Below are positions 22,491-46,358 of a stretch of 64,000 nucleotides of DNA, piece after piece (within the stretch, counting starts at the first letter, position 1; the number at the start of each line of letters is the position of its first letter). The stretch comes from Escherichia coli (GTDB lineage: Bacteria > Pseudomonadota > Gammaproteobacteria > Enterobacterales > Enterobacteriaceae), in assembly GCF_024502345.1 (NCBI RefSeq), contig NZ_JALDNN010000001.1. The stretch is one strand, 5' to 3'. Under the pieces are notes generated by a model. It searched no databases. It saw nothing but the letters and a program-made list of their open reading frames with translations, and was not told the origin of the DNA. A program made the position numbers and the translations under genes.

Positions 22491-24520
22491 GTTACTTACC
22501 AATAGAAAGATTAGAACAATTAAGAATTGGATCTGTTGGATTTGTATCACCTAATGAAATTAGAGTTTCTTTAGAGATTGACTCCCCTGATTCAGTGTCA
22601 CTTCAAGGCGGTTCCCCCCGCAATTTTCCTCGAATAAATAGTTATGTACTGATCAGTAGCGATGATGGATTTCTCGTCGGACAGGTTGAATGGATTGCCG
22701 TAGAACACTCTCCATACCCCAAAAGAAGAGGCTTACAAGATTTTGGCTTGATAGATCTTCCTTTTCCACTTAAAAAGCTCAGTATCAATCCCGTTGGTAC
22801 TTTGAGAGTCGATAGAAAAAACGAAGATTACAAGTTCACAAGAGGAACAGATGCTTTTCCCTCGGTTGGTGACTCCGTGCTCCTGCCTACTGACCGGCAA
22901 TTAAAATCAATAATAGAATCAGGTGACAATAGAAGAGTAAAAATAGGGGACAGCCCCCTAGCTAACAATGCGGAAATAAAAGTGGACCCTGATAGGCTTT
23001 TTGGACGACATTTAGCTGTTTTGGGCAATACAGGTAGTGGTAAATCATGCTCGGTTGCGGGGTTAATTCAATGGTCTTTAGATGCTGTTTTACAACAGGG
23101 ACAGATTCCAAATGCTCGGTTCATAATACTTGATCCAAATGGAGAATACAGTAGGGCATTCGGCCCAGAATCAAAATACAAGGGTAAGCTATTACGTGTA
23201 GAAGCTAACACTGGTGCTGAAGAGATAGATCTTAAAGTTCCGTCATGGTTATGGAATAGCTCTGAGTGGGGTGCTTTCACTCAAGCGAGTTCAAAAGTTC
23301 AACTTCCTTTACTACGCCGAGCTTTGAGGGCGATGAGAAATGATGTTTTATCAGAAGATGATGTGACAATCCAAGCGAAACACTTCTGCGGTATCCTACT
23401 CGTATCCATACGACAATTATCAAGCCAAGGCCAGATATATGTGAATGGCGGCCATGCCAAAGGTTTCGTTGATAGTTTAACGTCTTGGAATAATAGCCTG
23501 TCCACATTAAACGACAAAATCGATAACAAACCTTTCGATAATCTAATAAACACGATGAATGTGTATCTTTCCTCTCGTATAGGAATAAAATGGCCTGAAA
23601 AACCTGAAGTTTCAGATACTGATCAGTTGATTAATGAATTAAAAAATGCATATGAAACGCTTGGAGGTGATGAACAAGGACTTCTTCCAAAAAGTGAAGA
23701 TTCGCCTATTCGTTTTAAAGGGGATGATTTTGTCGCATACCTAGAAGCTCTAGCTCAAGAGACAGGCACAGAGCAATTCGTTGAATTCCTTTTGACTCGT
23801 ATTCGAACAATGCTAGGTGACACCCGTATAAGTGCAGTAACAAATGATTCGGAACAGCCTATCAGTTTAACTAATTGGTTAGACACTTTTCTCGGTAGAG
23901 ATGGACAAGGTTCCATAACTGTTATCGATTTATCGCTAGTCCCTAATGAAATAATACATTTGGTAACTGCTGTAATTTCCAGAGTAACTTTTGAAGCATT
24001 ACAACGTTATCGAAGACTTAAGGGGAAACCACTACCAACAGTTATGGTTGCAGAAGAAGCGCATACATTTATTAAACGCTACAAAGAAGATAGTGAGGGT
24101 CAGTCAGTCTCTGACGTATGCTGCAAAGTGTTTGAAAAGATCGCACGTGAAGGCAGGAAATTTGGGTTAGGTCTTGTAGTTTCTTCCCAACGACCCTCAG
24201 AGCTATCTCCGACTGTGTTATCTCAATGTAATACTTTTTTGTTGCACAGGATTAGTAATGATAGAGATCAAGAGCAAGTCCATAGACTTGTTCCCGATAA
24301 CATGAGGGGGTTGTTGAGGGAGTTGCCATCGCTACCATCTCGGCATGCCATTCTACTAGGATGGGCTTCTGAACTTCCGGTTTTAGTTAGAATGAAAGAG
24401 CTTACTGAAAAACAAAGACCACAATCTGACGATCCCGATTTTTGGGATGTGTGGTCTAACACTACAGAAGAGCCTCGCGAAGTTAATTGGCAACCAATAG
24501 CTGATGATTGGCAAAGTTAA
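22487..24520 (+). CDS. HerA-like FtsK/HerA-family ATPase of the SIR2-HerA system
   Basis: 677-aa ORF with Walker A GNTGSGKS, Walker B MVAEEAH and SSQRPSEL region; start overlaps the SIR2 stop (ATGA). Confidence 0.8.
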   Translation: MSYLPIERLEQLRIGSVGFVSPNEIRVSLEIDSPDSVSLQGGSPRNFPRINSYVLISSDDGFLVGQVEWIAVEHSPYPKRRGLQDFGLIDLPFPLKKLSINPVGTLRVDRKNEDYKFTRGTDAFPSVGDSVLLPTDRQLKSIIESGDNRRVKIGDSPLANNAEIKVDPDRLFGRHLAVLGNTGSGKSCSVAGLIQWSLDAVLQQGQIPNARFIILDPNGEYSRAFGPESKYKGKLLRVEANTGAEEIDLKVPSWLWNSSEWGAFTQASSKVQLPLLRRALRAMRNDVLSEDDVTIQAKHFCGILLVSIRQLSSQGQIYVNGGHAKGFVDSLTSWNNSLSTLNDKIDNKPFDNLINTMNVYLSSRIGIKWPEKPEVSDTDQLINELKNAYETLGGDEQGLLPKSEDSPIRFKGDDFVAYLEALAQETGTEQFVEFLLTRIRTMLGDTRISAVTNDSEQPISLTNWLDTFLGRDGQGSITVIDLSLVPNEIIHLVTAVISRVTFEALQRYRRLKGKPLPTVMVAEEAHTFIKRYKEDSEGQSVSDVCCKVFEKIAREGRKFGLGLVVSSQRPSELSPTVLSQCNTFLLHRISNDRDQEQVHRLVPDNMRGLLRELPSLPSRHAILLGWASELPVLVRMKELTEKQRPQSDDPDFWDVWSNTTEEPREVNWQPIADDWQS

Positions 24521-24941
24521 TTAACTTAACTAATTTTTAGTAGTGTTATAAGTAGTGGCTTATATCTGACATGACAGTTTAGGTTAGTAGTTTCAATCTA
24601 ACAGTAAGTGTCCACGGTGACGTTTTCATACTCAAATCTCCTGAAATGTGGGAGATTTGAGTATGGTTGTCCCTTATGAGCGAGGAGCGGAAGTTCTGCT
24701 TTAAGTGTATCAAACCCTCCAGCAAAGATGTTCTTGAATGTAATGCCATAATTTCCCTAACATTCCAGCACAAATCAATTAACTCTCAGTCCATAGTGTA
24801 TTTTACTTAAATTAAAATCAAATACTCTAGGAATTAAAATAACAAGATCACTTGCGATTATGCTATTTTAAATTAATATTTTTGTTTTTACTGGGGAACC
24901 TTCAAAACACGGAGCCAGATTTCTTCGTAGCTACCCTGTTG

Positions 24942-25766
24942 CTAGGGTTTCAAGTATTCCCCTAAAGGAAAGAAATTTTTTGACAACTTTTGGGATTCAG
25001 CAATTTTAACCAAATAAATATAGAATCCCAACAGAGCACTGTTCTCGCTTTCCCCCCTCGAATAGTGAACATGCCCAGGCACCTTCCGGATGAGGAAACC
25101 ATTATTTTTTACCAAATAATACCCTCTATCTAAAATTGTAATTACATCAGGCATATCATCTAAATCGATATTATTTCCAGTCATGTAATTAAACAGCGAA
25201 TCTCGTAAGGTACTTTCCTCTGGACCTTGGAAGGCTAGTAGTAAGAATGGTGTTTTTCTCAAGGTTGCACACATCCCTGAGATTTCCTCTACTAATTGCA
25301 CTGTATTTTGGGGAATATTTTCTTTCATAAAATAACCATCGTCAATACCGATTGGATTGATTCTTACCAAACCTTTTGACCTAACGCAAGCATCTAAGGT
25401 TGTCTTAAGGTTTGAAGCTCCTTCGGTCATTGAGCCAGTGTTTAATGAAGATTTACATTCAATTAACGCTAAAGCTGAATCGACAGGGACCATACACTGA
25501 TCTTTATCATAACTAAGTTTTAAAGAATGTTTCGAGTATATGATAATATCCATCTGACTTGAGAGATTATCCTTAGAGTCAAAAACCTGTCCTGATGTAA
25601 TATCTAAATTACTAGGGAGATTTGCTTTTAAAAATTCCCTTATTACAATTTCTCTAGCACTTCCTTTGCTACTCCCGTTCGTCGTTATGGATGACAAATT
25701 AAATGCTGAAACCAAAGATGCCGTATGGTTTTTTAAGTGTTTCTGGATTAATTTCATAAAGCTCAT
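24942..25766 (-). CDS. hypothetical protein, possible PD-(D/E)xK-like nuclease
   Basis: 274-aa ORF in AT-rich DNA convergent with herA; candidate motifs E (GSAREIVI), D (MDIIIYS) and ExK (ALIECKS); no family assigned with confidence. Confidence 0.5.
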   Translation of the reverse strand: MSFMKLIQKHLKNHTASLVSAFNLSSITTNGSSKGSAREIVIREFLKANLPSNLDITSGQVFDSKDNLSSQMDIIIYSKHSLKLSYDKDQCMVPVDSALALIECKSSLNTGSMTEGASNLKTTLDACVRSKGLVRINPIGIDDGYFMKENIPQNTVQLVEEISGMCATLRKTPFLLLAFQGPEESTLRDSLFNYMTGNNIDLDDMPDVITILDRGYYLVKNNGFLIRKVPGHVHYSRGESENSALLGFYIYLVKIAESQKLSKNFFPLGEYLKP

Positions 25767-26194
25767 TCCATTTTAATTTATCTACATCGCTTAAAGGCAA
25801 ATGATGCCACCGGCTACCAATTAAAAATTATCTCAACCTGAGAGATTTTTCCAGACTCCAAACGAAAATAAAAAACTACTCGTCACGTCCCTCCTGGCAC
25901 ATAGCCGACACCAAAACCAGCAACATATGGACAACGGTCCCTGCCCTGATGGCAGGTAATTGTATCAGACTTAAACACATATTATTTCTGTGAACTCCCC
26001 CCAACGGCAGTCCTTTCCTCTGAAGACCAGAACCAGACCGTAAAGCCTGCTCTTTCTGCATTTCCCGTATTAATTCATACCATGTGGCACCAGCATTCCC
26101 TTCGCCACACCAGAAAATCAATTCCCCAATAAAAAAGTGCCGTGCCGGGGATGGGTCAACCCTGACGTTCTTTACACCAGTCACAGGAGGTTAT

Positions 26195-27379
26195 ATGTCC
26201 ACCCCCAAACGCTTCCGTTTTACTAATCAGCTCATTAAATCCCTGCCCCCTAACACATCCGATGCACGCAGTACCGATGCCGAATACAGCGACACCGAGA
26301 TTTCCGGCCTCAAGTGTCTGGTCAGCAGAAGAGAAGGTCGTAAAAAGTTTTTGCTACGCTACCTTTATCATGGACGAAAACGCGCCATCGCCATTGGTCA
26401 CTGGCCTGAAGTGGACGTCAATCTTGCTCGTCAGATTGCCATAGAACACAAACGTTCCCTTGCCACCGGCACTGACCCTAAGCAGGAGCGTGAAAACAAG
26501 AGAATGGAGCTGACGTTCGATGAACTCTTTAATCAGCATTATCTGCCATGGGCAAAATCCGCTAAACGCAGTTGGGGAAAGGATGTTCAGCGCTACCGCG
26601 ATCATATCCGTCCCGCCATTGGTCAGAGGCTGCTGAGCGATATCACACCAGCGAGCATTCTGCGCCTTCAGCAGACGTTAAGTACTTCCCTGTCAGCAGC
26701 TACCTGTAACCGTGTCATCGTACTCATTAAAGCCGTCTTTACATGGGCCGGAAGGCAAAGCATGACCTCTGTCCATCCGGCAAGGGTGGTACAGCTTCTC
26801 AGGGAGAACAACGCCCGACAGCGCTATTTCACCGAGGACGAAATTCGTCGTATTTTTCTCTCCGCCGATAACGATACCAGCCCCGTCGCGGCCCGCTATG
26901 TCAAACTGTTGTTACTGACCGGCCTTCGTCGTGATGAGCTGCGTCTGGCTAAGTGGGAGCATGTTGACCCGGTTAAACGCACCCTGTGGCTCCCGGAAAC
27001 CAAGAATGGCTATGGGCGGATTGTTCACCTTAACTCACTGGCGATGGACGTAATCAGAACGCTGCCAACGCAGCGGGGAAATCCGTGGTTGTTTATCGGT
27101 AAAAAACAAGGAATGCCGCTGAATAACCCCGTTAAAGCCTTTCAGCGTATCGTTCGTCGGGCGGGAATTTTCGACCAGGAAGTGTGTATTCATACCTGCC
27201 GCCATTCGGTTGCCGCCCTCATCGTGTCCTACGGCGGAACACTGTATGACGTTCAGGCTCAACTGGGGCACCGCAGCAGTCAGTCTTCACAACGTTATGC
27301 GCATCTTCACCCTCAGCGCTTACAAAACACCAGTCAGTTACTGGCGGAAAGGATAACGGCTCAGCTACCGTCCTTGTGA
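26195..27379 (+). CDS. tyrosine-type site-specific integrase
   Basis: 394-aa ORF from ATG 26195 preceded by AGGAGG; catalytic boxes TGLRRDELRLAKWEHVD and HTCRHSVAAL...LGHRSSQSSQRYAHL (R, HxxR, Y). Confidence 0.85.
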   Translation: MSTPKRFRFTNQLIKSLPPNTSDARSTDAEYSDTEISGLKCLVSRREGRKKFLLRYLYHGRKRAIAIGHWPEVDVNLARQIAIEHKRSLATGTDPKQERENKRMELTFDELFNQHYLPWAKSAKRSWGKDVQRYRDHIRPAIGQRLLSDITPASILRLQQTLSTSLSAATCNRVIVLIKAVFTWAGRQSMTSVHPARVVQLLRENNARQRYFTEDEIRRIFLSADNDTSPVAARYVKLLLLTGLRRDELRLAKWEHVDPVKRTLWLPETKNGYGRIVHLNSLAMDVIRTLPTQRGNPWLFIGKKQGMPLNNPVKAFQRIVRRAGIFDQEVCIHTCRHSVAALIVSYGGTLYDVQAQLGHRSSQSSQRYAHLHPQRLQNTSQLLAERITAQLPSL

Positions 27380-27434
27380 TAACAGAAAAGCAGAGGCAAG
27401 TGCCCCTGCTTTTTTTTTACTGTTCAGCCATCAG

Positions 27435-27791
27435 TCAGAACGGGATGGCCCCATATTCTTCATCCGGCACCCGGTTATCATCAAATCTGTTATAGAGTTC
27501 ACGAGCACACTCGCGCGCGTCTTTAATAGACATACGAGGGAACCTGCCGAGGGGTTCATAATAGCAGGCCCCTTCAAGCGTATAACGAGCCAGGAATTTA
27601 ATCTCACCGTTGGCAATGACGGCCCGGAGCGCAGGCTCGCTGCCATCGAAGATTTCACGAGAAATGCCGTGATAAAGGCACTCCGCCAGTGTGTTAACCA
27701 GAGCGTAATCATTGAATGAGGTTTTTTCTTCATTTTCGCTGCTGATAGCGTGAGGAAAACCGTCATAGTACTGGTCTGATTCAAAAATCAT
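27435..27791 (-). CDS. hypothetical protein
   Basis: 118-aa ORF directly downstream of and co-oriented with the DUF927-like gene. Confidence 0.45.
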   Translation of the reverse strand: MIFESDQYYDGFPHAISSENEEKTSFNDYALVNTLAECLYHGISREIFDGSEPALRAVIANGEIKFLARYTLEGACYYEPLGRFPRMSIKDARECARELYNRFDDNRVPDEEYGAIPF

Positions 27792-27840
27792 ACATCACCT
27801 TCTATTGGTTGTTATTCAGTCAAAATGGTTTTATTCAGGG

Positions 27841-29769
27841 TTAAAATTCGGTCATCACATTGCATTTCAGAAACGCTTTTTTGACCTGGTAGTAAGACTG
27901 CGCCATCGTCTTCAGCGCTCTTTTTTTATAGTGTCCGGCACTTTCGCCAAGCAGATAACCGGAACGCTCTAACGGTCTGGCCACATCAACGGTCTTAAGT
28001 CCCTTTTCAGAACAGAGCTTTTCAAACACCGATTCATAAATCAGGAAGTCGCCGGTTTTGTAATGGACGAATCCCCACATATCTCCCGGGCATCGGGCAT
28101 GTTCGTCACGCAGGGTGATAAAGTGCCTGCTGCTTTTTGTCACCAGCGTCAGCTGAAGCTCCTCCAGCATGTTACGCACCGGGTTATACTGATTCTGGTT
28201 ATCATCCAGCCAGCGTCGTGCAGCGGACATAACGGATTCAGCCACCGCATCGCTTTCGAAAGGTAAAAGGCCATATTTCAGCGCCTTCTCTCCTGCCAGC
28301 CATACCAGCGCAAATCTTTTCAGTCCGCGCCGCTGAACGCGGGTAATATCACGCCCCTCATCCCTCAGGGCCTCTTCCAGTGCGTTACAGCAATCATCTG
28401 TCTGTTCCTGGAGCCAGGATGAAAACTCTGCGTAGGTGCGAAGACCGCCAGCCGTATTTTTCCCGGATAACAGTTTGCCGATAAATGCAGGCCCGGCATG
28501 ACCATAAGCCTCTGCCAGCCCCGTCTTCAGTGCATCTGCACGGGCACGTGTTTCTGATACCGGTTCATCCGGTTTTTGAGCATCCTCAGGCAACAGTTCC
28601 ATACTGATGGCCCTGTGCTCCTGCCCTCCCTGTAACACGGCTTTCTGTTCAGCCAGCTTTTCGGAGATTGACATCTCACCGGTGGAGAGAATAAACATGC
28701 GCCATTTAAACGGCTCATCTGCCGTCAGGCCACGGTTCAGGCGCTCTTTTGCCGTACCTGACGTAATGTTGTAAAGCAGTGAGGAAAGTTGCTTATGATT
28801 ACTCGCACCCAGTTCATCGACGCAGGCGACCAGACCGGAATAGTCAGCGAGAAGGCGCTCCATCGCGTTAGGCGTGGTATTCCAGCGAATAATATTTACA
28901 TTCCCCCCACTACCCGGCTCGCTGCCATCACCATGGACCGATGCAGCCAGCATCAGGAGAAGCGTTTTACCGGTGGTGGATACGCCGTGAAAATGAAACA
29001 TGCCCACATCCATACCGGCAGGAACCAGAAGCATCGAAGCAAAGGACGCACTCAGTGCAAAGGTCTGCGCCCAGCCATGGACATTTTCCCGGATGAGGTT
29101 AATCCACTCCTCCAGGGCCCCACCTTTGTGCAGTCCGGGACGCACGCGGAATCCCGGCAGTAGATAATCAAACCCGGTCAGAGAGGTCACAACGGGCTCA
29201 TGACCATGTAAAAAGGCCATATCCTCCGAAACGAATCCCATCGCATCTGCCATCAGATAGACAGGCAGCGGTAAACTCCGGCAGCGCTGAAGAAAACGGT
29301 CAAAAAGGGCAAACTGCTGTGGAGAGGAGCCAACACAAAATCCACGATCTGCCAGTTTGCCTACTACCTGAGCACCGCTCTGAACAATATCCTCAAAGCG
29401 TACCAGGGCCTTAACATACTTACCCAGCCCGTTACCGGTCATCAGGCTGATCCCAAGACCGGACTCCTTATCTTTTCCACAAAACAGGGCGACAGGCACA
29501 ACTGGCGTGGTGCAAACCTGCACAGGTTTCTGTCCACCGATGTAGAAAAGGCCATTAGCCGTATTCACATAATGCCGTGGCAGCCCATCACCAATACCGA
29601 GTGAAGCGATATCATCTTCACCGACCTCAGTGTTTTCAGCACGCCTGATAATTGCTTCCGACATTTTGTTGAAATTTTTATCGCGGTCAGCAAAAGCGCG
29701 AATACGCTTAATCCCGGAAACCTTAGGAACATTAGTTGTCACTTTTTTATTCATGTGTATTACCATCAA
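27841..29769 (-). CDS. DUF927-type P-loop NTPase, putative replication initiation (primase/helicase-like) protein of an integrative element
   Basis: 642-aa ORF with Walker A GVSTTGKT and Walker B-like VACVDELG; co-oriented immediately downstream of an integrase gene. Confidence 0.6.
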   Translation of the reverse strand: MMVIHMNKKVTTNVPKVSGIKRIRAFADRDKNFNKMSEAIIRRAENTEVGEDDIASLGIGDGLPRHYVNTANGLFYIGGQKPVQVCTTPVVPVALFCGKDKESGLGISLMTGNGLGKYVKALVRFEDIVQSGAQVVGKLADRGFCVGSSPQQFALFDRFLQRCRSLPLPVYLMADAMGFVSEDMAFLHGHEPVVTSLTGFDYLLPGFRVRPGLHKGGALEEWINLIRENVHGWAQTFALSASFASMLLVPAGMDVGMFHFHGVSTTGKTLLLMLAASVHGDGSEPGSGGNVNIIRWNTTPNAMERLLADYSGLVACVDELGASNHKQLSSLLYNITSGTAKERLNRGLTADEPFKWRMFILSTGEMSISEKLAEQKAVLQGGQEHRAISMELLPEDAQKPDEPVSETRARADALKTGLAEAYGHAGPAFIGKLLSGKNTAGGLRTYAEFSSWLQEQTDDCCNALEEALRDEGRDITRVQRRGLKRFALVWLAGEKALKYGLLPFESDAVAESVMSAARRWLDDNQNQYNPVRNMLEELQLTLVTKSSRHFITLRDEHARCPGDMWGFVHYKTGDFLIYESVFEKLCSEKGLKTVDVARPLERSGYLLGESAGHYKKRALKTMAQSYYQVKKAFLKCNVMTEF

Positions 29770-29838
29770 ATTACGCCACCGTCAGAAAACGGGTGCATCA
29801 GAACCATAGTTAAAAACCATACCGTTGAGTGAAGGTTG

Positions 29839-31251
29839 TTACCCCATCGCCCGGTTAACGACTTCGTGGTAACGCGCCGGGGAAGCGTGCAAGTAAAGCT
29901 CCGTTACTTTGATAGTGCTGTGACCCAATAAGTCTTTGACGGTGTGAATGTCGGCCCCGCTCTCAATGAGCTTTGTCGCAAAGGTATGACGCATCTCATG
30001 GATGGTGAACGGTGGAATACCCGCAGCCTCACAAAGTCGTTTTTGCAGGCGACGCGGCTCAGCAACCGGATTGTCGGTTCCCTTGCCCGGAAATACCCAG
30101 CCTTCATCACCCAGATGCTGACGCTGTTCTGTCAGAAGAACGAAAGCCTTATCACATACCGGTACACGGCGTAGTTTGCCGTTTTTGGTATGGCGAAGGG
30201 TGATAACCTTGCGGCTCCAGTCCACATCTTCAAGACGAAGGTGACGGGTTTCCCCCAGACGCAGCCCCGTCAGGGCAAGGAACATGAGAAGAGCAAGGGC
30301 TTCATGATCGGGTTTACCATTACGCCAGCGCTCACAGACGTCCATCCAGCGCTGAAGCTGGGAGTCATCCATGGCACGGCGATCTGACGTCACTTCAGGC
30401 AGCGCTTTGATATAAAGCGCCGGAGAGCGGCTGATGTATCCCATGCGTATAGCCCAGGTAAACACCGCTTTAATGAGCGCCAGATGGCGGTTGCGGGTGG
30501 CAGGCTTGAGATCGAGATTATGCAGATAGCTCAGAATATCTGCCTCCGTCATACCTGCCAGCTTTTTGTCACCGAGAAGAGGGCGCAGGTATTTACGGAT
30601 CTTAGAAAGGTCGGTGTTAGCTGAACGCTTAACGCCCGTGCTGAGTACGCTTTTCTCATACTCATCCACAAGCTCATTAAACGTCATTTTACTGTGAGTA
30701 AGAAAACGCTCACCGTAAGCCTCAACGGCGGTCTTGAGCTCCTGAATTATTTTAAAGGCATGCTCCCTTGCATCTTTAATTGAAATTTCCGGGTAGCCTC
30801 CTACGGCAACGTAGATATTCTTTCCGCGAATACTTTTGCGGACAATAAATTTAATGCGACCTGATGGATAGAATATTGCCTTAAGTCCGGTTAACTTCTT
30901 ATCGCTGGTCTCGATTGTTTGTGCAGCTTGTACTGCACGGATTTTATATTCATCAAAAAGGGCTTTAGTAAAAACACCTCCAGTATTTTTAGGTGCAACC
31001 CCTGGATATTCTACAACATCAGATACTCCAGAGTCGGAATACCCCTGAGCTTCCACATCTACATTGAAGGAATTTTTATGAGCAGCTGTGATGCTCTTTT
31101 CATCCAGCACTTGCGTTATTTTATTTAAAGGGTAATTAACTTTCATAATATGTACATGGTCCTCTGAAAATTCAGATGATAATGAGTAATTTAATATGTC
31201 GGCCAACAATGGGATAAGCTTATTTATTCGTGGCATCACTTTCAAGCCCAT
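29839..31251 (-). CDS. tyrosine-type site-specific integrase
   Basis: ORF with catalytic boxes ALTGLRLGETRHLRLEDVD and HEMRHTFATKLIESGADIHTVKDLLGHSTIKVTELYLH; true start codon uncertain. Confidence 0.85.
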   Translation of the reverse strand: MGLKVMPRINKLIPLLADILNYSLSSEFSEDHVHIMKVNYPLNKITQVLDEKSITAAHKNSFNVDVEAQGYSDSGVSDVVEYPGVAPKNTGGVFTKALFDEYKIRAVQAAQTIETSDKKLTGLKAIFYPSGRIKFIVRKSIRGKNIYVAVGGYPEISIKDAREHAFKIIQELKTAVEAYGERFLTHSKMTFNELVDEYEKSVLSTGVKRSANTDLSKIRKYLRPLLGDKKLAGMTEADILSYLHNLDLKPATRNRHLALIKAVFTWAIRMGYISRSPALYIKALPEVTSDRRAMDDSQLQRWMDVCERWRNGKPDHEALALLMFLALTGLRLGETRHLRLEDVDWSRKVITLRHTKNGKLRRVPVCDKAFVLLTEQRQHLGDEGWVFPGKGTDNPVAEPRRLQKRLCEAAGIPPFTIHEMRHTFATKLIESGADIHTVKDLLGHSTIKVTELYLHASPARYHEVVNRAMG

Positions 31252-31423
31252 GAAAAATCAGCTCTTACATGCCCATTGACATTTAATACTCAAGTCAGAA
31301 AGACCATGATGATTCATCAGGAGTACTCCTGCTCAGGGAAAAGGGAAAATAGCGTTAAACCCTATAAAAAAATTGTGTTCCGGATGCATCGCCCAAAGTA
31401 AGTCAACTTTTGAGGCCCTGAAG

Positions 31424-32468
31424 GGCTTTGTTGAATAAATCAGATTTCGGGTAAGTCTCCCCCGTAGCGGGTTGTGTTTTCAGGCAATACGCACGCTTTC
31501 AGGCATACCTGCTTTCGTCATTTTGTTCAGCGCTCGTACCAGGGCCATAGCCTCCGCAACCTGACCATCGTAGTCACGCAGCGTCAGTGAACCCCCGAAC
31601 AGCTGTTTTACCCGGTACATCGCCGTTTCCGCTATCGAGCGACGGTTGTAATCTGTTGTCCATTTCCACCGCGCATTACGCTGATTAGCCACTGCACGGT
31701 TACGGTCTGCATATTCACCGGGCCAGTAACCCGCACCTTTTCGGGGAGGGATAAGCGCGCTGATTTTCTTACGCCGCAGTTCATCGTGACAGAGCCGGGT
31801 GTCGTAAGCGCCGTCTGCCGATGCTGCCCTGATTTTTCTGTGAGTCTGCCGGATAAGACCCGGGAAGGCTTCTGAGTCCGTCACATTGTTCAGCGACAGG
31901 TCAGCGCAGATGATTTCATGTGTTTTACTGTCAACGGCGAGATGCAGCTTACGCCAGATACGGCGGCGTTCCTGGCCATGCTTTTTGACTTTCCACTCGC
32001 CTTCACCGAAGACCTTCAGCCCGGTGGAATCAATTACCAGGTGTGCGATTTCACCCCGGGTGGGCGTTTTGAAACTGACGTTAACCGACTTTGCCCGCCT
32101 GCTGACACAGCTGTAATCCGGGCAGCGTAGCGGAACGTTCATCAGAGAAAAAATGGAATCAATAAAGCCCTGCGCAGCGCGCAGGGTCAGCCTGAATACG
32201 CGTTTAATGACCAGCACAGTCGTGATGGCAAGGTCAGAATAGCGCTGAGGTCTGCCTCGTGAAGAAGGTGTTGCTGACTCATACCAGGCCTGAATAGCTT
32301 CATTATCCAGCCAGAAAGTTATGGAGCCACGGTTGATGAGGGCTTTATTGTAGGTGGGCCAGTTGGTGATTTTGAACTTTTGCTTTGCCACGGAACGGTC
32401 TGCGTTGTCGGGAAGATACGTGATCTGATCCTTCAACTCAGCAAAAGTTCGATTTATTCAACAAAGCC
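31424..32468 (-). mobile_element. IS5-family, IS903-group insertion sequence
   Basis: 18-bp terminal inverted repeats GGCTTTGTTGAATAAATC at 31424..31441 and 32451..32468, flanked by a 9-bp direct duplication GCCCTGAAG (31415..31423 and 32469..32477). Confidence 0.9.
31480..32436 (-). CDS. IS903-group transposase (DDE)
   Basis: 318-aa ORF filling the IS; C-terminal segment DGAYDTRLCHDELRRKKISALIPPRKGAGYWPGEYADRNRAVANQR recalled as IS903-type transposase. Confidence 0.85.
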   Translation of the reverse strand: MKDQITYLPDNADRSVAKQKFKITNWPTYNKALINRGSITFWLDNEAIQAWYESATPSSRGRPQRYSDLAITTVLVIKRVFRLTLRAAQGFIDSIFSLMNVPLRCPDYSCVSRRAKSVNVSFKTPTRGEIAHLVIDSTGLKVFGEGEWKVKKHGQERRRIWRKLHLAVDSKTHEIICADLSLNNVTDSEAFPGLIRQTHRKIRAASADGAYDTRLCHDELRRKKISALIPPRKGAGYWPGEYADRNRAVANQRNARWKWTTDYNRRSIAETAMYRVKQLFGGSLTLRDYDGQVAEAMALVRALNKMTKAGMPESVRIA

Positions 32469-32799
32469 GCCCTGAAGTAAGAAAATGGTAATAGACCCCA
32501 CCGATTTTCGACTAAAAAACAACCCAATAAGGCATTTAAAATTAATGCTATTTAAATCAATAGATTAAAGTGATGATTTTGACAATATGCAGCCCAACTT
32601 AAGGGTAAATCAACCTTTCAACAATCAAAACCACACTCCATTAATTTTTATTATTGTGACAATCATCACATTTTACACCTGCGGGTGCTTTGATTTTGTA
32701 CATTCACAAAGCTCACCAACCCCAACGACTATGAACGTAAAAAACCTCTTTTTATGCACATATTATTTCCATGTAAATCAATTCATTATGGAGATAATC

Positions 32800-33153
32800 A
32801 TGTTCAAGCTCACGACACCCACCAGTCTTCCCCTTCTCAAACTGTCCGCCTCCGCGCTGGAAGCCCTCAGCAATGAAATCCTTGGCCCCGTCGATGATAT
32901 CGACCTGTTTACCGCCTTCTGGAACGAAACGGAAACCCTGCTCTGGCATCTCAACCATGATGACACGCTGCCCGAAGACCCGCTGCTGGCAGTTGCACTG
33001 GCTAACCCGGAATACGTCACCGCACTTGATGATGGCTGGTATCTGCTTCTCGGTATCGTCTGTGATAACGGACAGGGTATCTATCTGGTATTCCCGGACA
33101 CGACCATTATCACTCAACTCCAGAACCTGATTGAGGCGCTGAACCATGAGTAA
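32800..33153 (+). CDS. hypothetical acidic protein (gene 1 of the four-gene cassette)
   Basis: 117-aa ORF from ATG 32800 preceded by GGAGA; rich in D/E; stop overlaps the next gene start by 8 nt. Confidence 0.55.
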   Translation: MFKLTTPTSLPLLKLSASALEALSNEILGPVDDIDLFTAFWNETETLLWHLNHDDTLPEDPLLAVALANPEYVTALDDGWYLLLGIVCDNGQGIYLVFPDTTIITQLQNLIEALNHE

Positions 33154-33577
33154 GAAAAAAATCGCTACCGAAGCCGCCGTCATCGAAAGCTATACCGTGT
33201 TCTACAGGGGTGAAGCCGAGAAAATCAGTCCCCACAGTAAGGGTCTGCTGACGTATGAGTTGGGTAAAGAGGGTGAAACCGGAAGCCTTGCCCTGCGCTT
33301 AACCGCCAATGGCGAAGGGGGGCTGTTCTCCCGTGAATGGATAGCGCTTGATGCGATTCACGCCATTCTTGAACAACAGCAGGACAGTTTCCCGTCCCGG
33401 GTATTCCGCCCGCTGTTTGGTCAGGGCAGCACCAACAACGCCGGGTTTCTTGCCGCTGTACTGAGAAGCCCGGATATCTGTCTTATCGAGGCGGACAGCA
33501 GCAGACTCTTTATGCACCGCTGCTACGCCGACTGGCCGCATCGTATGACGCAGCTTGCCGCACTCAGCCAGGACTAA
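33146..33577 (+). CDS. hypothetical protein (gene 2 of the four-gene cassette)
   Basis: 143-aa ORF MSKKKIATEAAVIESYTVFYRGEAEK, translationally coupled to gene 1. Confidence 0.55.
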   Translation: MSKKKIATEAAVIESYTVFYRGEAEKISPHSKGLLTYELGKEGETGSLALRLTANGEGGLFSREWIALDAIHAILEQQQDSFPSRVFRPLFGQGSTNNAGFLAAVLRSPDICLIEADSSRLFMHRCYADWPHRMTQLAALSQD

Positions 33578-33623
33578 TCCCCACTTTTTCTGTGTTCCAT
33601 ACCCCTTAAAAAGGAAATTCACT

Positions 33624-34052
33624 ATGTCATCACCCGCTATATTGCAGGGCGGCTATGTGCTGCCTCTCTCCCGGTCGTTCACCCAACTGCTTCTGGATAT
33701 CCTCGCGCAAAAACCGCCTCATCGTCACCCCATCACCGGATTAACCATTAACTTCCGTGACCCTGAATACTCACCGGAAAAGGGCGGCTGGCATCCGGTC
33801 GAAATACGCCTCATCCCTGCCGGAGAAGACTGGCAGCTCGATTACGTCACCGATTTTCACTATGCAGGACATCCATGGCCTGAGCTTGAAAAAGATGTCG
33901 ATGTGAGCTGGACGCAACAATACACGTGGCTTTCCCGTTGTGGCGATATCTCTCATGTCGACGCCCGTGAGTTCTGGTCGCTATGGGAAAGTAACTTTAT
34001 GGCTTACCACGATATGGGGGTTTTCACGGTCCGTACGTTGTGGGAAAGCTGA
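33624..34052 (+). CDS. hypothetical protein (gene 3 of the four-gene cassette)
   Basis: 142-aa ORF from ATG 33624 (MSSPAILQGGYVLPLSRS), 46 bp after gene 2. Confidence 0.55.
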   Translation: MSSPAILQGGYVLPLSRSFTQLLLDILAQKPPHRHPITGLTINFRDPEYSPEKGGWHPVEIRLIPAGEDWQLDYVTDFHYAGHPWPELEKDVDVSWTQQYTWLSRCGDISHVDAREFWSLWESNFMAYHDMGVFTVRTLWES

Positions 34053-34110
34053 GTGTTCACTACGTTTCCCCCGCATCCCCCCTCTCCCCCATAGTAAGGA
34101 ACTGAATGTT

Positions 34111-34575
34111 ATGTACCGGCTTCTGCTGCTTAACTTCGTGGATTCATTTATCGATAACTGCATTCTGTCCTGCGTCGATGAACCGGCTTACGGCGGTATC
34201 GTGCAGTGCGAACTGCTTTTTGGCCTTGCCGCACACAGCGGTATCTATGTGGGTAACGGCGATATTGTTCATCTTGATGGCGATGGAACCGTTATCAAAA
34301 GTAAGGCTAAAGGTTTTCTTGACCGGCTCGATGGCTGGAACTCCGCTATCTCGGTGTATACCGACTGTATGGATTTGACGCCTCAGGGTTGTGCGCGGGC
34401 CGCTGAACGGGCAAAGGCGGCAGTGGGTCAGCGCTATCCTTATAGCCTGCTCGACTTTAACTGCCACCGGTTTACTGCCCGCTGCGTTACCGGCGATTCG
34501 TGCCCTGATATCTGGCTTGCCAGACACCTCGATACATTTCAGAAAGGGGACCGATGGCGCGTATGGCAACGATGA
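34111..34575 (+). CDS. LRAT/HRASLS-like papain-fold enzyme (gene 4 of the four-gene cassette)
   Basis: 154-aa ORF with AAHSGIYVGNGDIVHL (His42, His54) and DFNCHRF (Cys118), matching the LRAT-family His-His-Cys arrangement and NCEHF-type motif. Confidence 0.65.
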   Translation: MYRLLLLNFVDSFIDNCILSCVDEPAYGGIVQCELLFGLAAHSGIYVGNGDIVHLDGDGTVIKSKAKGFLDRLDGWNSAISVYTDCMDLTPQGCARAAERAKAAVGQRYPYSLLDFNCHRFTARCVTGDSCPDIWLARHLDTFQKGDRWRVWQR

Positions 34576-34793
34576 AAGCCAGCCGTTGCAGGCAACGTGT
34601 CACCGGACAGGGAGAACGGCTTATCCGGCTGACCATGGTGCTGTTTTACGGTCAGACAATATCTGTTCGCTACATCATCCGGCAGTTTGACGTGTCTCCC
34701 CGCACAGCAAGACGGGACCTCGCTCAACTGGCCTTTGTGCTGGAATCCGCTGGCCCTCACCTCTGGCGACTGGCTCCCTCGCTGAAACCCTGA
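34554..34793 (+). CDS. small HTH protein or N-terminal fragment of a WYL-type regulator
   Basis: 79-aa ORF with HTH-like segment TISVRYIIRQFDVSPRTARRDLAQL, resembling the N-terminus of the WYL regulator at 36249; overlaps the end of the LRAT-like gene in another frame. Confidence 0.4.
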   Translation: MARMATMKASRCRQRVTGQGERLIRLTMVLFYGQTISVRYIIRQFDVSPRTARRDLAQLAFVLESAGPHLWRLAPSLKP

Positions 34794-34867
34794 CTTTTTT
34801 CTCTGCCGGACATCTCCTGACCACCCCGTATGGCAGGCTGTCTCCGCTTTTCAATCCATAAGGGAAC

Positions 34868-35254
34868 ATGATGAAAATTTCTAAACTGTTAACCGCCACA
34901 CTTCTGCTTTCAGCCTTCAGCCACAGCGCATTTGCCGACGAGCAGGCTGACGCTCAGATGATAACCAACTCGACCTTCTGTGCGATGTACTCCACCCGCC
35001 TGACCCAGACCAGTGACAGCGGCCTTCAGGTAAAAGGCGTCAATCTCAATGCCCGCATCAACGGACCGGTATTCAACAGGGTACTTCAGGTGATGAACAA
35101 AACCTATGGCAGAACCTGGCTCGAATCAAATGCCCGTAACGGCAGCATGACCGCCATGCAGCTTTCGCAGTCGGAGCTGCTTTATAACCCGGAATATGCC
35201 CGGCAGTGCGATGCCTTTGCGGATAAAGTGGAAAAGGAATGGCGCGGAAAGTAA
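34868..35254 (+). CDS. hypothetical secreted protein
   Basis: 128-aa ORF with N-terminal signal peptide MMKISKLLTATLLLSAFSHSAFA; followed by a terminator. Confidence 0.6.
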   Translation: MMKISKLLTATLLLSAFSHSAFADEQADAQMITNSTFCAMYSTRLTQTSDSGLQVKGVNLNARINGPVFNRVLQVMNKTYGRTWLESNARNGSMTAMQLSQSELLYNPEYARQCDAFADKVEKEWRGK

Positions 35255-35287
35255 TCCCGACGCGTTATACCTCCATCCGGTGAACAG

Positions 35288-35314
35288 AAACCTGCTTTCG
35301 GGCAGGTTTTTTTT
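35288..35314 (+). terminator. rho-independent terminator
   Basis: AAACCTGC-TTTCG-GGCAGGTTT hairpin followed by a T run. Confidence 0.8.
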
Positions 35315-35396
35315 ACTTTTTTATTTTTCAGGCGGACAAACCCTGTCCGGGGGCTTCCTTAAACTGTCAGGTCCAATATCTGCAATGAGGTGAAAT

Positions 35397-36146
35397 ATGG
35401 CTACCTACCGACACGACCCTGATCTTGAATTTCTGCGCCACTGCCATCGTGACGATCTGGATTTACTGGTTTCTGTGCTTATCTGCGATCCGAAAGACGG
35501 ACTGGCACGCATCACGGAAACGCTGACCTATGATCCTCAGTATAAAAAACACAAGCCCAACCACCCGCGCTACTGGGATGCCATTGCCGCCGAGGTTCAG
35601 ACGTTTGGGGCGAACAGCTTTGCCACGCTGCTCCGCTGGGGTAAAGGGGTGCTGTACCGGGAAATTCTCACCGATGCCTGCGATAAAATGAAGGTGAACT
35701 ACAACAACAAATCCAGTGTTGAAACCATTGAAATGAATCTGCTGATGAAGATCCTGGAGAAAAGTCTTGAGAAGATGACGCCTGACCAGCTAAAGACCGT
35801 GGCGGAAGAATTGCAGACAGGCTACAGCAACCCCACGCCGGAGTTGCTGACCATGGCAATCCAGGCGGGGATAAAAACATCCGGGTTTGCGGCCTATCAG
35901 ATGGCACTTGTTGTCACAAATGGTGTGGCGAAAGCCCTGTTAGGCAGAGGGCTGACCGTTGCAGGAAATGCCATGCTGACGCGTACCATGGGCGCTTTTG
36001 CCGGTCCCGTGGGCTGGGTGCTCAGTTCTCTCTGGCTGCTGATTGATTTAGCCGGTCCCGCATACCGGGTGACGCTACCATCCTGCATTTTTATTGCCTA
36101 CATGCGCCAGAAGCATCTTTATTCACCTGAGAATACTGACGTTTAG
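35397..36146 (+). CDS. YaaW-like protein (UPF0174/DUF3944 family)
   Basis: 249-aa ORF; N-terminal DLEFLRHC and C-terminal GPVGW...AYRVTLP segments resemble E. coli YaaW as I recall it. Confidence 0.55.
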   Translation: MATYRHDPDLEFLRHCHRDDLDLLVSVLICDPKDGLARITETLTYDPQYKKHKPNHPRYWDAIAAEVQTFGANSFATLLRWGKGVLYREILTDACDKMKVNYNNKSSVETIEMNLLMKILEKSLEKMTPDQLKTVAEELQTGYSNPTPELLTMAIQAGIKTSGFAAYQMALVVTNGVAKALLGRGLTVAGNAMLTRTMGAFAGPVGWVLSSLWLLIDLAGPAYRVTLPSCIFIAYMRQKHLYSPENTDV

Positions 36147-36248
36147 CACTTACATTTAAGGTATTCAGACTTTAAAAAACTTCAGAGGGCGGACAAATCC
36201 TGTCCGCTACTGCTGGCATCATTTCCCGGCTAAATTCGGAAATGATGT

Positions 36249-36962
36249 ATGACGCTGATAACACAAGAAAACGAACATGACAGACTGGCAACCCGCCTTT
36301 CCATCATCCTGAGCCGTTTGTTTCAGGGTGAAAAGCTGCATATCGGGACGCTGGCAGAAGAATTTGGAGTGACGACGCGAACGCTGCGACGGGATTTCAA
36401 CGTCCGTCTGACCTACCTTGATATTGAACAGAGCAACGGCGTGTATCAGCTTGCCTCACATTACTTTCGTCGCCGCACGGAACGGGATATGAAGATACTG
36501 GCGAGGTTGCTGCATCTTGACCGTCTGTTACCCGCGATGGATGCCAAACTACTGAGCCTGATGCTTGACGGGGAACGTCCCTCGCCATACAGGATTATGC
36601 TACCGGAGCCGCGCCAGAAACCCACCCTTTTCGGTGATTTCAGCAGACTGACGCTCGCCATACTTAACCAGACCCAGGTGCGTATCAGAACCGACGAAAA
36701 CGTCAGCCATACCGTTCATCCCTACCGTCTGCTTTGCAGCCATGCGGAGTGGTTTCTTGCCGGATGTACGTCATCGGGCGTGTTCGTTATTTCCCTGTCC
36801 CGAATCAGGCTGGTTGAGGTATTACCGGATACAACGTTTGAGATCGATAACACACTCATTTCGCTGATTGAACAGTCTGACTTTATGGAAGCCTTACCCC
36901 ACATGAACATTATTCATCAGATAATGCATTACGGGAGTAAACAGACGAATAATCGTAATTAA
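36249..36962 (+). CDS. WYL-domain transcriptional regulator (BrxR/CapW-like)
   Basis: 237-aa ORF with N-terminal HTH (HIGTLAEEFGVTTRTLRRDF) and WYL-type motif (HPYRLLCSHAEWFLAGC); sits upstream of restriction genes. Confidence 0.7.
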   Translation: MTLITQENEHDRLATRLSIILSRLFQGEKLHIGTLAEEFGVTTRTLRRDFNVRLTYLDIEQSNGVYQLASHYFRRRTERDMKILARLLHLDRLLPAMDAKLLSLMLDGERPSPYRIMLPEPRQKPTLFGDFSRLTLAILNQTQVRIRTDENVSHTVHPYRLLCSHAEWFLAGCTSSGVFVISLSRIRLVEVLPDTTFEIDNTLISLIEQSDFMEALPHMNIIHQIMHYGSKQTNNRN

Positions 36963-37002
36963 AATCACAACATATTATTAGTGATGATTAAATCACATTA
37001 AC

Positions 37003-37332
37003 ATGATAAGTGAGAAAGTTATGATTATCGATAAAGAATACGCACTTGTAAATGCAACAGCAAGACTTAACACTGACCTGAGGGATTATGAATATGAAAT
37101 AAACAACGCCGCCATCATAACATTTGGCAATGACCTCATTGAGGTAATCGTATATCAGTTCAGCTTTGTCATCAGCATCAGGGCAGAGGGTGAAAAAATA
37201 AAGCACGGCCTACTTGTTAACTTCGGTAAAAATATAGCAAGACAGGTTTCATCACTTTGTGCATCCGCAATGCGAGTCTACCCGAATGAAAAACACAAAC
37301 CGAGCCGTCAGCTTTTCCATTGCATAAATTAG
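37003..37332 (+). CDS. hypothetical protein
   Basis: 109-aa AT-rich ORF between the WYL regulator and the type IV restriction gene; may be non-coding. Confidence 0.3.
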   Translation: MISEKVMIIDKEYALVNATARLNTDLRDYEYEINNAAIITFGNDLIEVIVYQFSFVISIRAEGEKIKHGLLVNFGKNIARQVSSLCASAMRVYPNEKHKPSRQLFHCIN

Positions 37333-37393
37333 TTTGTGCAAAGACTGTACTACCGACACGCAATAAATTAAAATAGGCCAGCTAATATAACAT

Positions 37394-39271
37394 ATGAGGT
37401 TTATGATGGCTGGCCAGTATGAAAAAGCAATAACGATAAAACAAGCGATAGATTCAATTAATTTACGCCACTATCTTCTGCCTGCAATTCAGAGGAAGTT
37501 CGTCTGGAGCAGCAGTCAAATATGTTTGCTGTTTGATTCCATCATGCGAGACTACCCGATAAACTCTTTCATGATGTGGGATATCCGTAGTGCCAGTATT
37601 AAAAATGATTACAAATTCTATGAATTCCTGAAAGAATACTGTCAGCGATTTAATGAAGAAAACCCCTGCGTAGCAACAAATGCTGGATTTCATGATTTCA
37701 AGGCGGTGATTGATGGTCAGCAGCGTCTCACATCATTATATATTGGATTGTGTGGAACGTATGCGTATAAACAGCCCCGGGTGTGGTGGCCTTCGGCACA
37801 GGATGATCGCATCCTGCCGCCCAGAAAGCTTTACGTCGATTTAACAGCGCCACTTAATTCAGACGATGAGCTCATGATGAAGTATAACTTCAGGTTCCTG
37901 ACCGACAAGCAATACGCTGATTCACTTACAGACAACAAGCATCACTGGTTCTGCCTGCACGAAATATTCAAATACGAGCAACATGATTCGCCTGATGATA
38001 TTTTATTTAACGTTGTCGTACCAGAACTCGAAAAAAGAGGACTCATTTCCAGTGAATTTTCCAGAAAAACATTACTGAGACTTTATACAAAAATAAGAAC
38101 TGAGAACATCATCCACTACTTCAATGAGAGTAGTCAGGATATTGACCATGTGCTGGATGTTTTCATACGCACGAACAGCGGGGGGACAAAACTTGAGTTC
38201 TCCGACTTACTGATGTCAATAGCGGTAGCGCACTGGCAGGGTGATTTCAGAAGAGAACTGGATGAACTGACAAAAAACATTTATCAGAATAATGAAATGG
38301 GGTTTTATATTGAAAGAGACTGGTTCTTAAAAACCAGCCTGATGCTTATTGACTCTGACGTCCGGTTCAAAGTAAAAAACTTCACTTCAGAGGAGGTCGG
38401 TAAGATACAACAACAATGGTCTGAAATAAAATCCTGCATCAAGGAGACTTTTATTCTTATCAGGCGATTCGGCATCAATCCACAGTCTTTGATATCTAAA
38501 AATGCAGTCATTCCTGTGGTCTACTGGCTTTACAAAAAGCAAACCAGTGGACATCCATTATATACAACGATTAACCTCCTGAATAAAAACCACAATGAAC
38601 GCTCAGTAATTAGCCAGTGGTTTTACATGGTACTTCTGAAAGGGATCTTTGGAAGCCAGGCAGATGCGCTACTCACGAGTATCAGAGATGTAATGAAAAA
38701 TAGTCTTTCAGATATTCACTTTCCTCTTGAAAAGATTATTGACAGATATAAAGGCTCGAATAAAGACCTCAGATTTGACGACGAATACATCGAAAGCCTT
38801 CTCAATATCAGATATGGCGAAGGTCGTTGCCGCGCACTATTGCATCTTCTGTTCCCTGAAATGAATCCGACCGAGGTGTTTCATATTGATCACCTTCACC
38901 CAAGAAATCACTTCTCAAAGAAATATCTTGAAAAATTAGATTATGTTGCGAACTCACCAGAGAACCTCAGCTTTTATGAAAACCCGGAACACTGGGACAC
39001 CATACCTAATCTTCATTTACTGAATCATTCTCAGAATATAAGTAAACAGGATACTTCCCTGAAACAATGGCTATCTCAGCCATCAAACAACTATTCGCCA
39101 TCAATGCTGTTAGTTTCAGATGAAAATATTGAGTTCAGTCGCTTCCCGGAATTCTACAATGAACGAAGAAACGCCCTGAAGCAAAGACTACTGAATCGGG
39201 TATTTCTTACAACAAAAATAGATTCATCACCATCCACAATCGATACGGATGAAGAAATTCTCACCGACTGA
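37394..39271 (+). CDS. GmrSD-family type IV restriction endonuclease (DUF262 + DUF1524)
   Basis: N-terminal DUF262 hallmark DGQQR (in KAVIDGQQRLTSLYIG) and C-terminal His-Me finger-like HIDHLHPRNH; likely start at ATG 37406 after GAGG. Confidence 0.8.
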   Translation: MRFMMAGQYEKAITIKQAIDSINLRHYLLPAIQRKFVWSSSQICLLFDSIMRDYPINSFMMWDIRSASIKNDYKFYEFLKEYCQRFNEENPCVATNAGFHDFKAVIDGQQRLTSLYIGLCGTYAYKQPRVWWPSAQDDRILPPRKLYVDLTAPLNSDDELMMKYNFRFLTDKQYADSLTDNKHHWFCLHEIFKYEQHDSPDDILFNVVVPELEKRGLISSEFSRKTLLRLYTKIRTENIIHYFNESSQDIDHVLDVFIRTNSGGTKLEFSDLLMSIAVAHWQGDFRRELDELTKNIYQNNEMGFYIERDWFLKTSLMLIDSDVRFKVKNFTSEEVGKIQQQWSEIKSCIKETFILIRRFGINPQSLISKNAVIPVVYWLYKKQTSGHPLYTTINLLNKNHNERSVISQWFYMVLLKGIFGSQADALLTSIRDVMKNSLSDIHFPLEKIIDRYKGSNKDLRFDDEYIESLLNIRYGEGRCRALLHLLFPEMNPTEVFHIDHLHPRNHFSKKYLEKLDYVANSPENLSFYENPEHWDTIPNLHLLNHSQNISKQDTSLKQWLSQPSNNYSPSMLLVSDENIEFSRFPEFYNERRNALKQRLLNRVFLTTKIDSSPSTIDTDEEILTD

Positions 39272-39474
39272 ACGTTCAGCCCCGATAGTATTGGGGCTTC
39301 AGTATTTATCATCAGCGCAACGTTTCTACTGGCCTGGCTGAAAGAGCATTGGCTACACAACCGGGCAAACGAACTCTCAGTGCAACGTATGACATACAAA
39401 GCCTGTCATCAATATGAAATTGCGATAAAATCGGGCCAATAACAGTACTTAAGAATCATACAACAGGATACAAA

Positions 39475-41031
39475 ATGACAAGCCTTCAGCAGCGTGCAGA
39501 GCTACACCGTCAAATCTGGGCCATTGCCAATGATGTCAGAGGCTCCGTAGATGGGTGGGATTTTAAACAGTATGTACTCGGTGCACTTTTCTACCGCTTC
39601 ATCAGTGAGAATTTTTCCAGCTACATGGAAGCAGGGGATGAGAGCATACATTATGCAGCACTTGATGACAGCATCATTACCGATGACATCAAAGACGATG
39701 CCATCAGGACTAAAGGCTATTTCATCTACCCGAGCCAGCTGTTCTGCAACGTTGCCGCTAAAGCGAACACCAACGACAGGCTGAATGCTGATTTAAACAG
39801 TATCTTCGTCGCTATAGAAAGCTCTGCCTACGGCTACCCGTCAGAGGCCGACATCAAAGGCCTGTTCGCCGATTTCGATACGACCAGCAATCGACTGGGG
39901 AACACAGTTAAAGACAAAAACAGCCGTCTTGCCGCGGTTCTGAAAGGGGTTGAAGGGTTAAAACTTGGTGACTTCAACGAACATCAGATTGACCTGTTCG
40001 GTGATGCCTATGAGTTCCTGATTTCTAACTATGCCGCAAATGCCGGTAAGTCAGGCGGTGAGTTCTTTACACCGCAGCACGTCTCCAAGCTGATTGCACA
40101 ACTGGCTATGCACGGGCAGACCAGCGTTAACAAAATCTACGACCCGGCAGCGGGTTCCGGCTCACTGTTGTTGCAGGCGAAAAAACAGTTTGATAACCAC
40201 ATCATCGAAGAAGGCTTTTTCGGTCAGGAAATCAACCATACGACCTATAACCTGGCGCGTATGAACATGTTTTTGCACAATATCAACTACGACAAGTTTG
40301 ATATCAAGCTGGGTAATACACTGACTGAGCCGCACTTCAGAGATGAAAAACCGTTTGACGCCATCGTATCTAATCCACCGTATTCGGTGAAATGGATTGG
40401 CAGCGATGACCCGACGCTGATTAACGATGAACGTTTTGCCCCGGCTGGCGTTCTGGCCCCCAAATCCAAAGCTGACTTTGCGTTTGTATTACATGCACTG
40501 AACTATCTTTCTGCCAAAGGTCGTGCTGCGATTGTCTGCTTCCCGGGTATTTTTTACCGTGGCGGCGCAGAGCAGAAAATCCGTCAATATCTGGTCGACA
40601 ATAACTATGTCGAAACCGTGATTTCACTGGCACCGAACCTGTTCTTTGGCACCACCATTGCCGTCAATATTCTGGTGCTGTCTAAACATAAAACGGATAC
40701 CAAAGTTCAGTTTATTGATGCCAGCGAATTATTCAAAAAAGAGACTAACAACAATATCCTGACCGATGCCCATATCGAACAGATTATGCAGGTATTTGCC
40801 AGCAAGGAAGATGTTGCTCATCTGGCGAAATCTGTCGCGTTTGAGACCGTTGTCGCTAATGACTATAACCTGTCGGTGAGCTGCTATGTAGAAGCGAAAG
40901 ATAACCGCGAAATTATCAATATTGCTGAGCTAAATGCAGAGCTTAAAACTACGGTTAGCAAAATCGACCAGTTGCGTAAAGATATTGATGCGATTGTGGC
41001 TGAAATTGAAGGCTGCGAGGTGCAGAAATGA
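39475..41031 (+). CDS. hsdM: type I restriction-modification system methyltransferase subunit
   Basis: 518-aa ORF with SAM-binding [11 protein letters not shown] and catalytic NPPY (IVSNPPYS) motifs. Confidence 0.9.
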
Positions 41032-42200: not shown

Positions 42201-42316
42201 CGGACCATTGATACCGGCAGGGTTTGTTCTCACCCGCCCGGTATCAGGCTTTAAGAATGCCGGAAGATGCTTCTGATACCCTTCCGGAATTTGCCAGATG
42301 ACGCACAGGATGCACC

Positions 42317-46319: not shown

Positions 46320-46333
46320 AATTCATATCAACG

Positions 46334-46358
46334 GACCTCCACGGAGGTCCGTTTTTCG
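46334..46358 (+). terminator. hairpin terminator after the partial tRNA copy
   Basis: GGACCTCC-ACG-GAGGTCCG followed by TTTTTCGTTT. Confidence 0.7.

Follow-up and report, generated by a model that had tools for sequence, protein, structure and literature searches.

A single IS903B copy with a 12-bp deletion in its transposase gene, inserted into a tRNA-Phe island of Escherichia coli

We analyzed a stretch of 64,000 nucleotides of E. coli DNA (the window) that contains an insertion sequence next to a gene for a tyrosine recombinase. The element is very probably a single copy of IS903B that transposed into a 494-bp spacer of a tRNA-Phe island of about 26 kb, and that carries a 12-bp deletion which probably weakens or disables its own transposase. 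It is one ordinary IS903B copy, a known insertion sequence inserted in a known manner. The new information is modest, namely a 12-bp deletion derivative with a probably impaired transposase, and an island whose truncation, suspected in a preliminary description of this DNA, did not happen. The features are as follows, in window coordinates.

31415..31423, no strand: left copy of the target-site duplication, GCCCTGAAG; present as a single copy in unoccupied alleles, GCCCTGAAA or GCTCTGAAA
31424..31441, plus strand: IRR, 18 bp, on the 3' side of the transposase, GGCTTTGTTGAATAAATC; identical to annotated IS903B ends
31424..32468, minus strand: IS903B element (IS5 family, IS903 group) of 1045 bp (1057 minus 12), by alignment
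31480..32391, minus strand: transposase gene, 303 aa; the open reading frame reaches a TTG at 32436, giving the 318-aa WP_256632683.1 (Pfam, NCBIfam)
31675..31682, minus strand: junction of the 12-bp deletion, CTCCCGGTCATT absent, by alignment to canonical copies
32451..32468, minus strand: IRL, 18 bp, on the 5' side of the transposase, by inverted-repeat scan and alignment
32469..32477, no strand: right copy of the target-site duplication, GCCCTGAAG, abutting the inverted repeat
29839..31251, minus strand: context, 470-aa tyrosine recombinase (Pfam Phage_integrase, 5.5e-32)

The boundaries of the element are sharply defined. A search of the whole 64-kb window for the inverted repeat GGCTTTGTTGAATAAATC gave exactly two matches, one at 31424-31441 (plus strand) and the other at 32451-32468 (minus strand), both without mismatches, while 0.06 matches would be expected by chance even allowing three mismatches. 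Both ends are adjoined by the 9-bp direct repeat GCCCTGAAG (31415-31423 and 32469-32477); the chance of a 9-bp identity at two fixed flanking positions is 4^-9, or about 4e-6. The 18-bp inverted repeats and the 9-bp duplication reported in the preliminary description are therefore both perfect at these positions. A composite transposon was considered and rejected, as there is no second IS903B end anywhere in the 64-kb window. The transposase is encoded on the minus strand by an uninterrupted open reading frame (32436-31480), which gives 318 aa from a TTG or 303 aa from a GTG, the latter being the counterpart of the canonical 307-aa start. Thus, the full-length transposase gene described earlier stands as far as the open frame is concerned, but not in its length, since 12 bp are missing and the protein has 303 instead of 307 residues.

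Using the element as a megablast query, we found copies covering at least 80% of it in 1536 of 5426 complete E. coli genomes and in at least 5000 plasmid records. Nearly all listed matches are annotated as 'IS5-like element IS903B family transposase', and the name IS903B is used here in the sense of this NCBI annotation label. All full-length matches span 1057 bp, compared with 1045 bp for the window element. Alignment with two annotated copies demonstrated that the window element is base-identical to IS903B of the Salmonella plasmid pSal679_2 save for one 12-bp gap, with no substitutions and the same single gap relative to the annotated IS903B on NZ_CP067083; relative to the copy of E. coli AR_0061 there is one substitution. 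Both aligned reference copies bear 9-bp duplications of their own (ACTAAAAAC and CAGCAAACG). The transposase matches the Pfam domains DDE_Tnp_1_5 (2.4e-40) and DDE_Tnp_1 (5e-32), scores 353.7 bits with the NCBIfam model NF033579 for IS5 family transposases (cut-off 140), and is matched by the transpos_IS5_2 model and by none of the other IS5 models.

IS903B has been described as 1057 bp long (PMC8431375) and as a member of the IS5 family producing direct target repeats of 9 bp (PMC9769513). The window element shows the IS903B sequence, the perfect 18-bp inverted repeats, the 9-bp duplication and the DDE triad with the Y(2)R(3)E(6)K motif, whereas in place of the canonical 1057 bp and 307 aa it has 1045 bp and 303 aa. 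Compared with IS903B (IS5 family, IS903 group), it thus has the same ends, duplication and gene orientation, and differs in being 12 bp shorter and in having a transposase without Met239-Ser242. The isoforms of the IS903 group, IS903 of Tn903, IS102 and ISKpn74, agree with it in family, length class, end structure and 9-bp duplication. They are about 89-95% identical to each other (PMC8431375). Since the window copy is base-identical to IS903B specifically, it derives from IS903B and not from IS903, IS102 or ISKpn74. The type element IS5, of the IS5 group, also encodes a DDE transposase of the same Pfam/NCBIfam superfamily, is about 1.2 kb long and makes 4-bp duplications at YTAR targets; unlike IS5, the window element has a 9-bp duplication and matches the transpos_IS5_2 model. 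Judged from its sequence, the window element is therefore a deletion derivative of IS903B and not a member of another family, and the earlier assignment to the IS903 group can be narrowed to identity with copies annotated as IS903B, apart from the deletion.

The deletion replaces canonical CATTA-CTCCCGGTCATT-CGCTG by CATTA-CGCTG at about 31678/31679. This 12-bp loss, which accounts for an element of 1045 bp instead of 1057 bp, is in frame and removes residues Met239-Thr240-Gly241-Ser242 in the canonical 307-aa numbering. Residues D121, D193 and E259 are retained, together with the motif Y252-x2-R255-x3-E259-x6-K266. In line with the IS903 literature and with their invariance in the alignment, we take D121, D193 and E259 to be the catalytic residues. 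For the alignment, homologues at 34-48% identity were drawn from a representative library of 1.84 billion proteins. Six residues are invariant over 45 aligned homologues (D121, D193, E259, R230, W246 and K266), while Y252 and R255 are nearly so. In the AlphaFold2 model of the canonical protein, whose mean pLDDT is 90.8, residues 228-240 form a helix, 241-243 a turn and 244-249 a second, short helix, followed by the catalytic helix at 252-269. Judged by this model, the deletion would therefore take away the last part of the first helix together with most of the turn preceding the catalytic helix, which carries Tyr252, Arg255, Glu259 and Lys266. A fold search against solved structures returned only distant RNase-H-like transposases and integrases, and no close IS5-family structure for mapping the deletion.

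The spacing between Arg230 and Trp246 is 15 residues in canonical IS903B and 11 in the window copy, while in 101 full-length homologues it ranges from 14 to 25 and is never less than 14. On the other hand, the deleted residues are not conserved, and the region accommodates insertions of up to 10 residues in homologues, so the protein might still work. Taking these sequence comparisons together, we consider it fairly likely that the deletion has cost the transposase its activity. The preliminary description had called the element intact, which does not agree with an in-frame loss of 12 bp predicted to remove the turn before the catalytic helix. We infer that the ends of the element would still be usable and that its own transposase would be impaired. 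As to the origin of the deletion, slippage was considered and rejected: the microhomology at the junction is 1 nt only, and the nearby CATT repeats would lead to a loss of 13 bp, not 12. The loss probably took place at the present site or in the copy that served as immediate donor.

The shortened form was found to be very rare. The exact 318-aa translation corresponds to WP_256632683.1 / MCQ7032273.1 (E. coli), known from one 4.74-Mb contig (a count of contigs, not of copies), while the 90%-identity cluster around WP_256632683.1 has 25127 members. Neither the 5426 E. coli genomes nor the plasmid matches listed contained a match to the 1045-bp form better than the gapped 98.8-98.9%. The 40-nt sequence of the deletion junction had no exact match in 241 million metagenome records, in which the canonical junction, used as a positive control, was found at 81 loci. 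The 51 other complete IS903B copies, from fetched loci that are nearly all metagenome assemblies, are 1055-1058 bp long, and none of them has 1045 bp. The deletion derivative was thus found nowhere else in the collections searched, which take in the source chromosome only within the window.

It is possible, though rather doubtful, that the window copy is a fully active isoform of IS903B, in which the loss of four residues from a tolerant surface turn leaves transposition unaffected. Such an isoform would be in keeping with the open reading frame, the intact D121, D193, E259 and Y-R-E-K motif, the two perfect inverted repeats, and the placement of the deleted residues at variable alignment columns, within a region that is longer in some homologues than in others. 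It is harder to reconcile with an Arg230-Trp246 spacing that lies below the minimum of all 101 homologues, and with the absence of other variant copies from the collections searched, given that canonical IS903B is very common and that an active element ought to spread. An artefact of sequencing or assembly, the element being in reality a canonical 1057-bp IS903B, appears quite unlikely to us. The variant was found only once, IS copies, being repeated, are difficult to assemble, and the matching flanks in only 16 of 51 copies (see below) suggest that mis-joins are frequent. However, a clean 12-bp in-frame loss within non-repetitive, non-homopolymer sequence is atypical of read errors, the remainder of the element is base-perfect relative to the reference copy, and the identical protein has been deposited at NCBI from the 4.74-Mb contig.

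The insertion of the deletion derivative could be traced by means of the unoccupied site. The two flanks joined with one copy of the 9-mer gave an empty-site query of 452 bp, which was found in one uninterrupted piece in 14 E. coli chromosomes, ten of them at 99.6-99.8% identity, and had no match in the plasmid collection. The occupied version of the site was present in no E. coli genome of the collection. A pattern scan of 100,044 species-representative genomes added five species in which the site is unoccupied (Buttiauxella warmboldiae, Enterobacter genomosp. O, Enterobacter sichuanensis, Mixta tenebrionis and Pseudocitrobacter vendiensis). In all ten unoccupied alleles that were read, five from E. 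coli and five from the other species, the 9-mer is single-copy; we also looked for empty alleles whose difference from the joined flanks exceeded one duplication copy, and saw none. Empty alleles with one 9-mer indicate a simple insertion into the 494-bp intergenic spacer. The preliminary description had read the 9-bp duplication as the mark of simple transposition and had proposed a comparison with empty-site alleles; the single-9-mer alleles of E. coli and five other species now provide direct proof.

Among the 51 complete IS903B copies with readable flanks (metagenome contigs, loci L013-L093), only 16 have a perfect 9-bp duplication. The remaining copies probably represent composite transposons, recombination between copies or chimeric assembly. 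With a duplication in only 16 of 51 copies, a matching duplication is informative and not automatic. By the usual mechanism of the family, the DDE transposase would have bound the 18-bp terminal inverted repeats, the 3' ends of the element would have been joined to target phosphates staggered by 9 bp, and gap repair would have duplicated the 9-mer GCCCTGAAG. With its own transposase impaired, the copy would most likely be stranded, or would move only with the help of another copy.

One base of the target differs from the unoccupied alleles. Base 9 of the duplication (31423 and 32477) is G in both copies in the window, compared with A in ten of ten unoccupied alleles read, in which the target reads GCCCTGAAA or GCTCTGAAA. 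In E. coli 2018-01-1CC, whose allele was aligned base by base, this is the sole difference in 452 bp, and eight further E. coli genomes match the query at the same 99.8%. Since base 9 is next to the IS in the left copy but at the far end of the repeat in the right copy, an error at the junction or in gap repair cannot account for both. The simplest reading is probably an A-to-G polymorphism that was present in the target before the insertion; no G-type empty allele occurred among the ten unoccupied alleles read. The chance that a single SNP lands inside the 9-mer is about 2%, a post hoc figure. Among 17 IS903B duplications (PMC9769513 also used), we observed neither a consensus nor a preference at base 9. 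It seems very improbable that the change to G made the site an IS903B target or a better one, that IS903 insertion involves some process acting on its target, or that the shorter transposase is functional with altered properties.

The island that received the element is delimited by repeats of the tRNA-Phe 3' end. The tRNA-Phe gene lies at 20145-20220 and its last 50 bp or so are repeated at about 46271-46320, so that the two att repeats (20172-20221 and about 46271-46320), both present, enclose an island of about 26 kb. The flank from efp to tRNA-Phe is 98.7% identical to E. coli 2018-01-1CC. The genes are arranged in the order SIR2-HerA pair, DUF6602 nuclease-like gene, P4-type integrase, Arm-DNA-binding gene, DUF927 gene, 470-aa tyrosine recombinase, IS, several small genes, GmrSD/HEC-05-like gene, and type I restriction-modification system. 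The location given earlier, inside an island between an integrase module and a gene cassette, is thus correct, the neighbors being the 470-aa recombinase of a tRNA-Phe island and small plus-strand genes. In 2018-01-1CC, an IS-free relative like E. coli MB15, the insertion point corresponds to a position in the 494-bp spacer, from which the recombinase and the first small plus-strand gene (about 32800-33153 in the window) diverge; the recombinase homologue there is annotated as a tyrosine-type recombinase.

Several other features of this island were noted. Between tRNA-Phe and the P4-type integrase (21072-25766) there is a SIR2-HerA defence pair (PADLOC SIR2 2.7e-154, HerA 2e-252), adjoined by a minus-strand DUF6602 / PD-DExK nuclease-like gene. 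The 2018-01-1CC island, otherwise colinear, lacks this segment of 5.4 kb, which is therefore a variable cargo slot. The region 26084-31251 encodes two tyrosine recombinases, of 431 aa (plus strand) and 470 aa (minus strand), which flank a small Arm-DNA-binding gene and a DUF927 gene; at least 80% of this four-gene module is covered in 68 E. coli genomes. The 470-aa recombinase has about 100 extra N-terminal residues ahead of its arm-binding domain, and an assignment to GmtY of the gamma-mobile-trio was rejected (19 bits, cut-off 340). On the other side of the IS, the region 37394-45433 contains a GmrSD-like DUF262 gene (PADLOC HEC-05, 3.9e-231) followed by the type I restriction-modification genes hsdM, hsdS and hsdR. 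The hsdS region has diverged from 2018-01-1CC, with an alignment gap at 41083-42065.

The preliminary description had suggested that the insertion may have cut the integrative element off from its upstream part, and in a broader form the IS could be the scar of a larger rearrangement (for example one end of a composite transposon, a recombination event involving two IS copies, or a neighboring deletion) by which the island was cut and lost its upstream part. The position of the IS between two functionally different modules and the many IS903B copies elsewhere without matching flanks would fit such a history. However, the window segments 25942-31422 and 32469-41083 are colinear with the 2018-01-1CC island and overlap only in the 9-mer, and the two flanks of 5.5 kb (left) and 8.6 kb (right) are covered to at least 80% in 68 and 64 E. 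coli genomes, respectively. Nothing is missing or rearranged, which means that the island, entered at an intergenic point, has not been structurally severed. The perfect 9-bp duplication, the lack of a second IS903B end in the window, the recovery of the joined flanks as unoccupied alleles in one piece and the retention of both att repeats argue in the same direction; non-matching flanks, or sequence missing relative to the empty alleles, were checked for and neither was found. We therefore regard a rearrangement scar as extremely improbable.

A simple insertion into the spacer might nevertheless influence its neighbors. The start codon of the recombinase lies 172 bp beyond the end of the IS, and the transposase is transcribed toward the recombinase and in the same direction, so that read-through altering recombinase expression is conceivable from the gene arrangement. 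Scans for sigma-70 promoters and terminators in the occupied and the unoccupied spacer gave nothing above shuffled expectation. An Rfam scan of the unoccupied spacer found no RNA family, and nothing thus indicates that a known RNA element was disrupted by the IS.

The DNA to the right of the island belongs to further mobile segments. In the region 46271-51380, the second copy of the tRNA-Phe 3' end, which is the attR of the first island, is directly followed by another P4-type integrase (46517-47782), and then by a phosphoethanolamine transferase gene, an outer-membrane beta-barrel gene and an IS1. This region represents a second island in tandem, with 99.9% identity to several E. coli chromosomes. 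To the right of IS1 (52597-64000) there is a heavy-metal module with two P-type ATPases, cueR, a Cd/Pb-responsive regulator and a cation diffusion facilitator. The module is 100% identical to contigs of about 250-270 kb from E. coli strain 44 that are non-chromosomal and apparently of plasmid origin, and the reference strain has cadCBA at this position. The identity to apparent plasmid contigs, together with cadCBA in the reference strain, suggests that plasmid-type DNA may have been captured into the chromosome via an IS.

IS903B is among the commonest insertion sequences of Enterobacteriaceae, and a textbook simple insertion of it has little import beyond annotation. For annotation, the copy should be recorded as a deletion derivative whose transposase is probably impaired, and not as an intact IS, and the tRNA-Phe defence island, being structurally complete, need not be treated as truncated. 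Neither the insertion nor the 12-bp deletion turned up in any other genome searched, so that they may be of use in marking the strain or its lineage.
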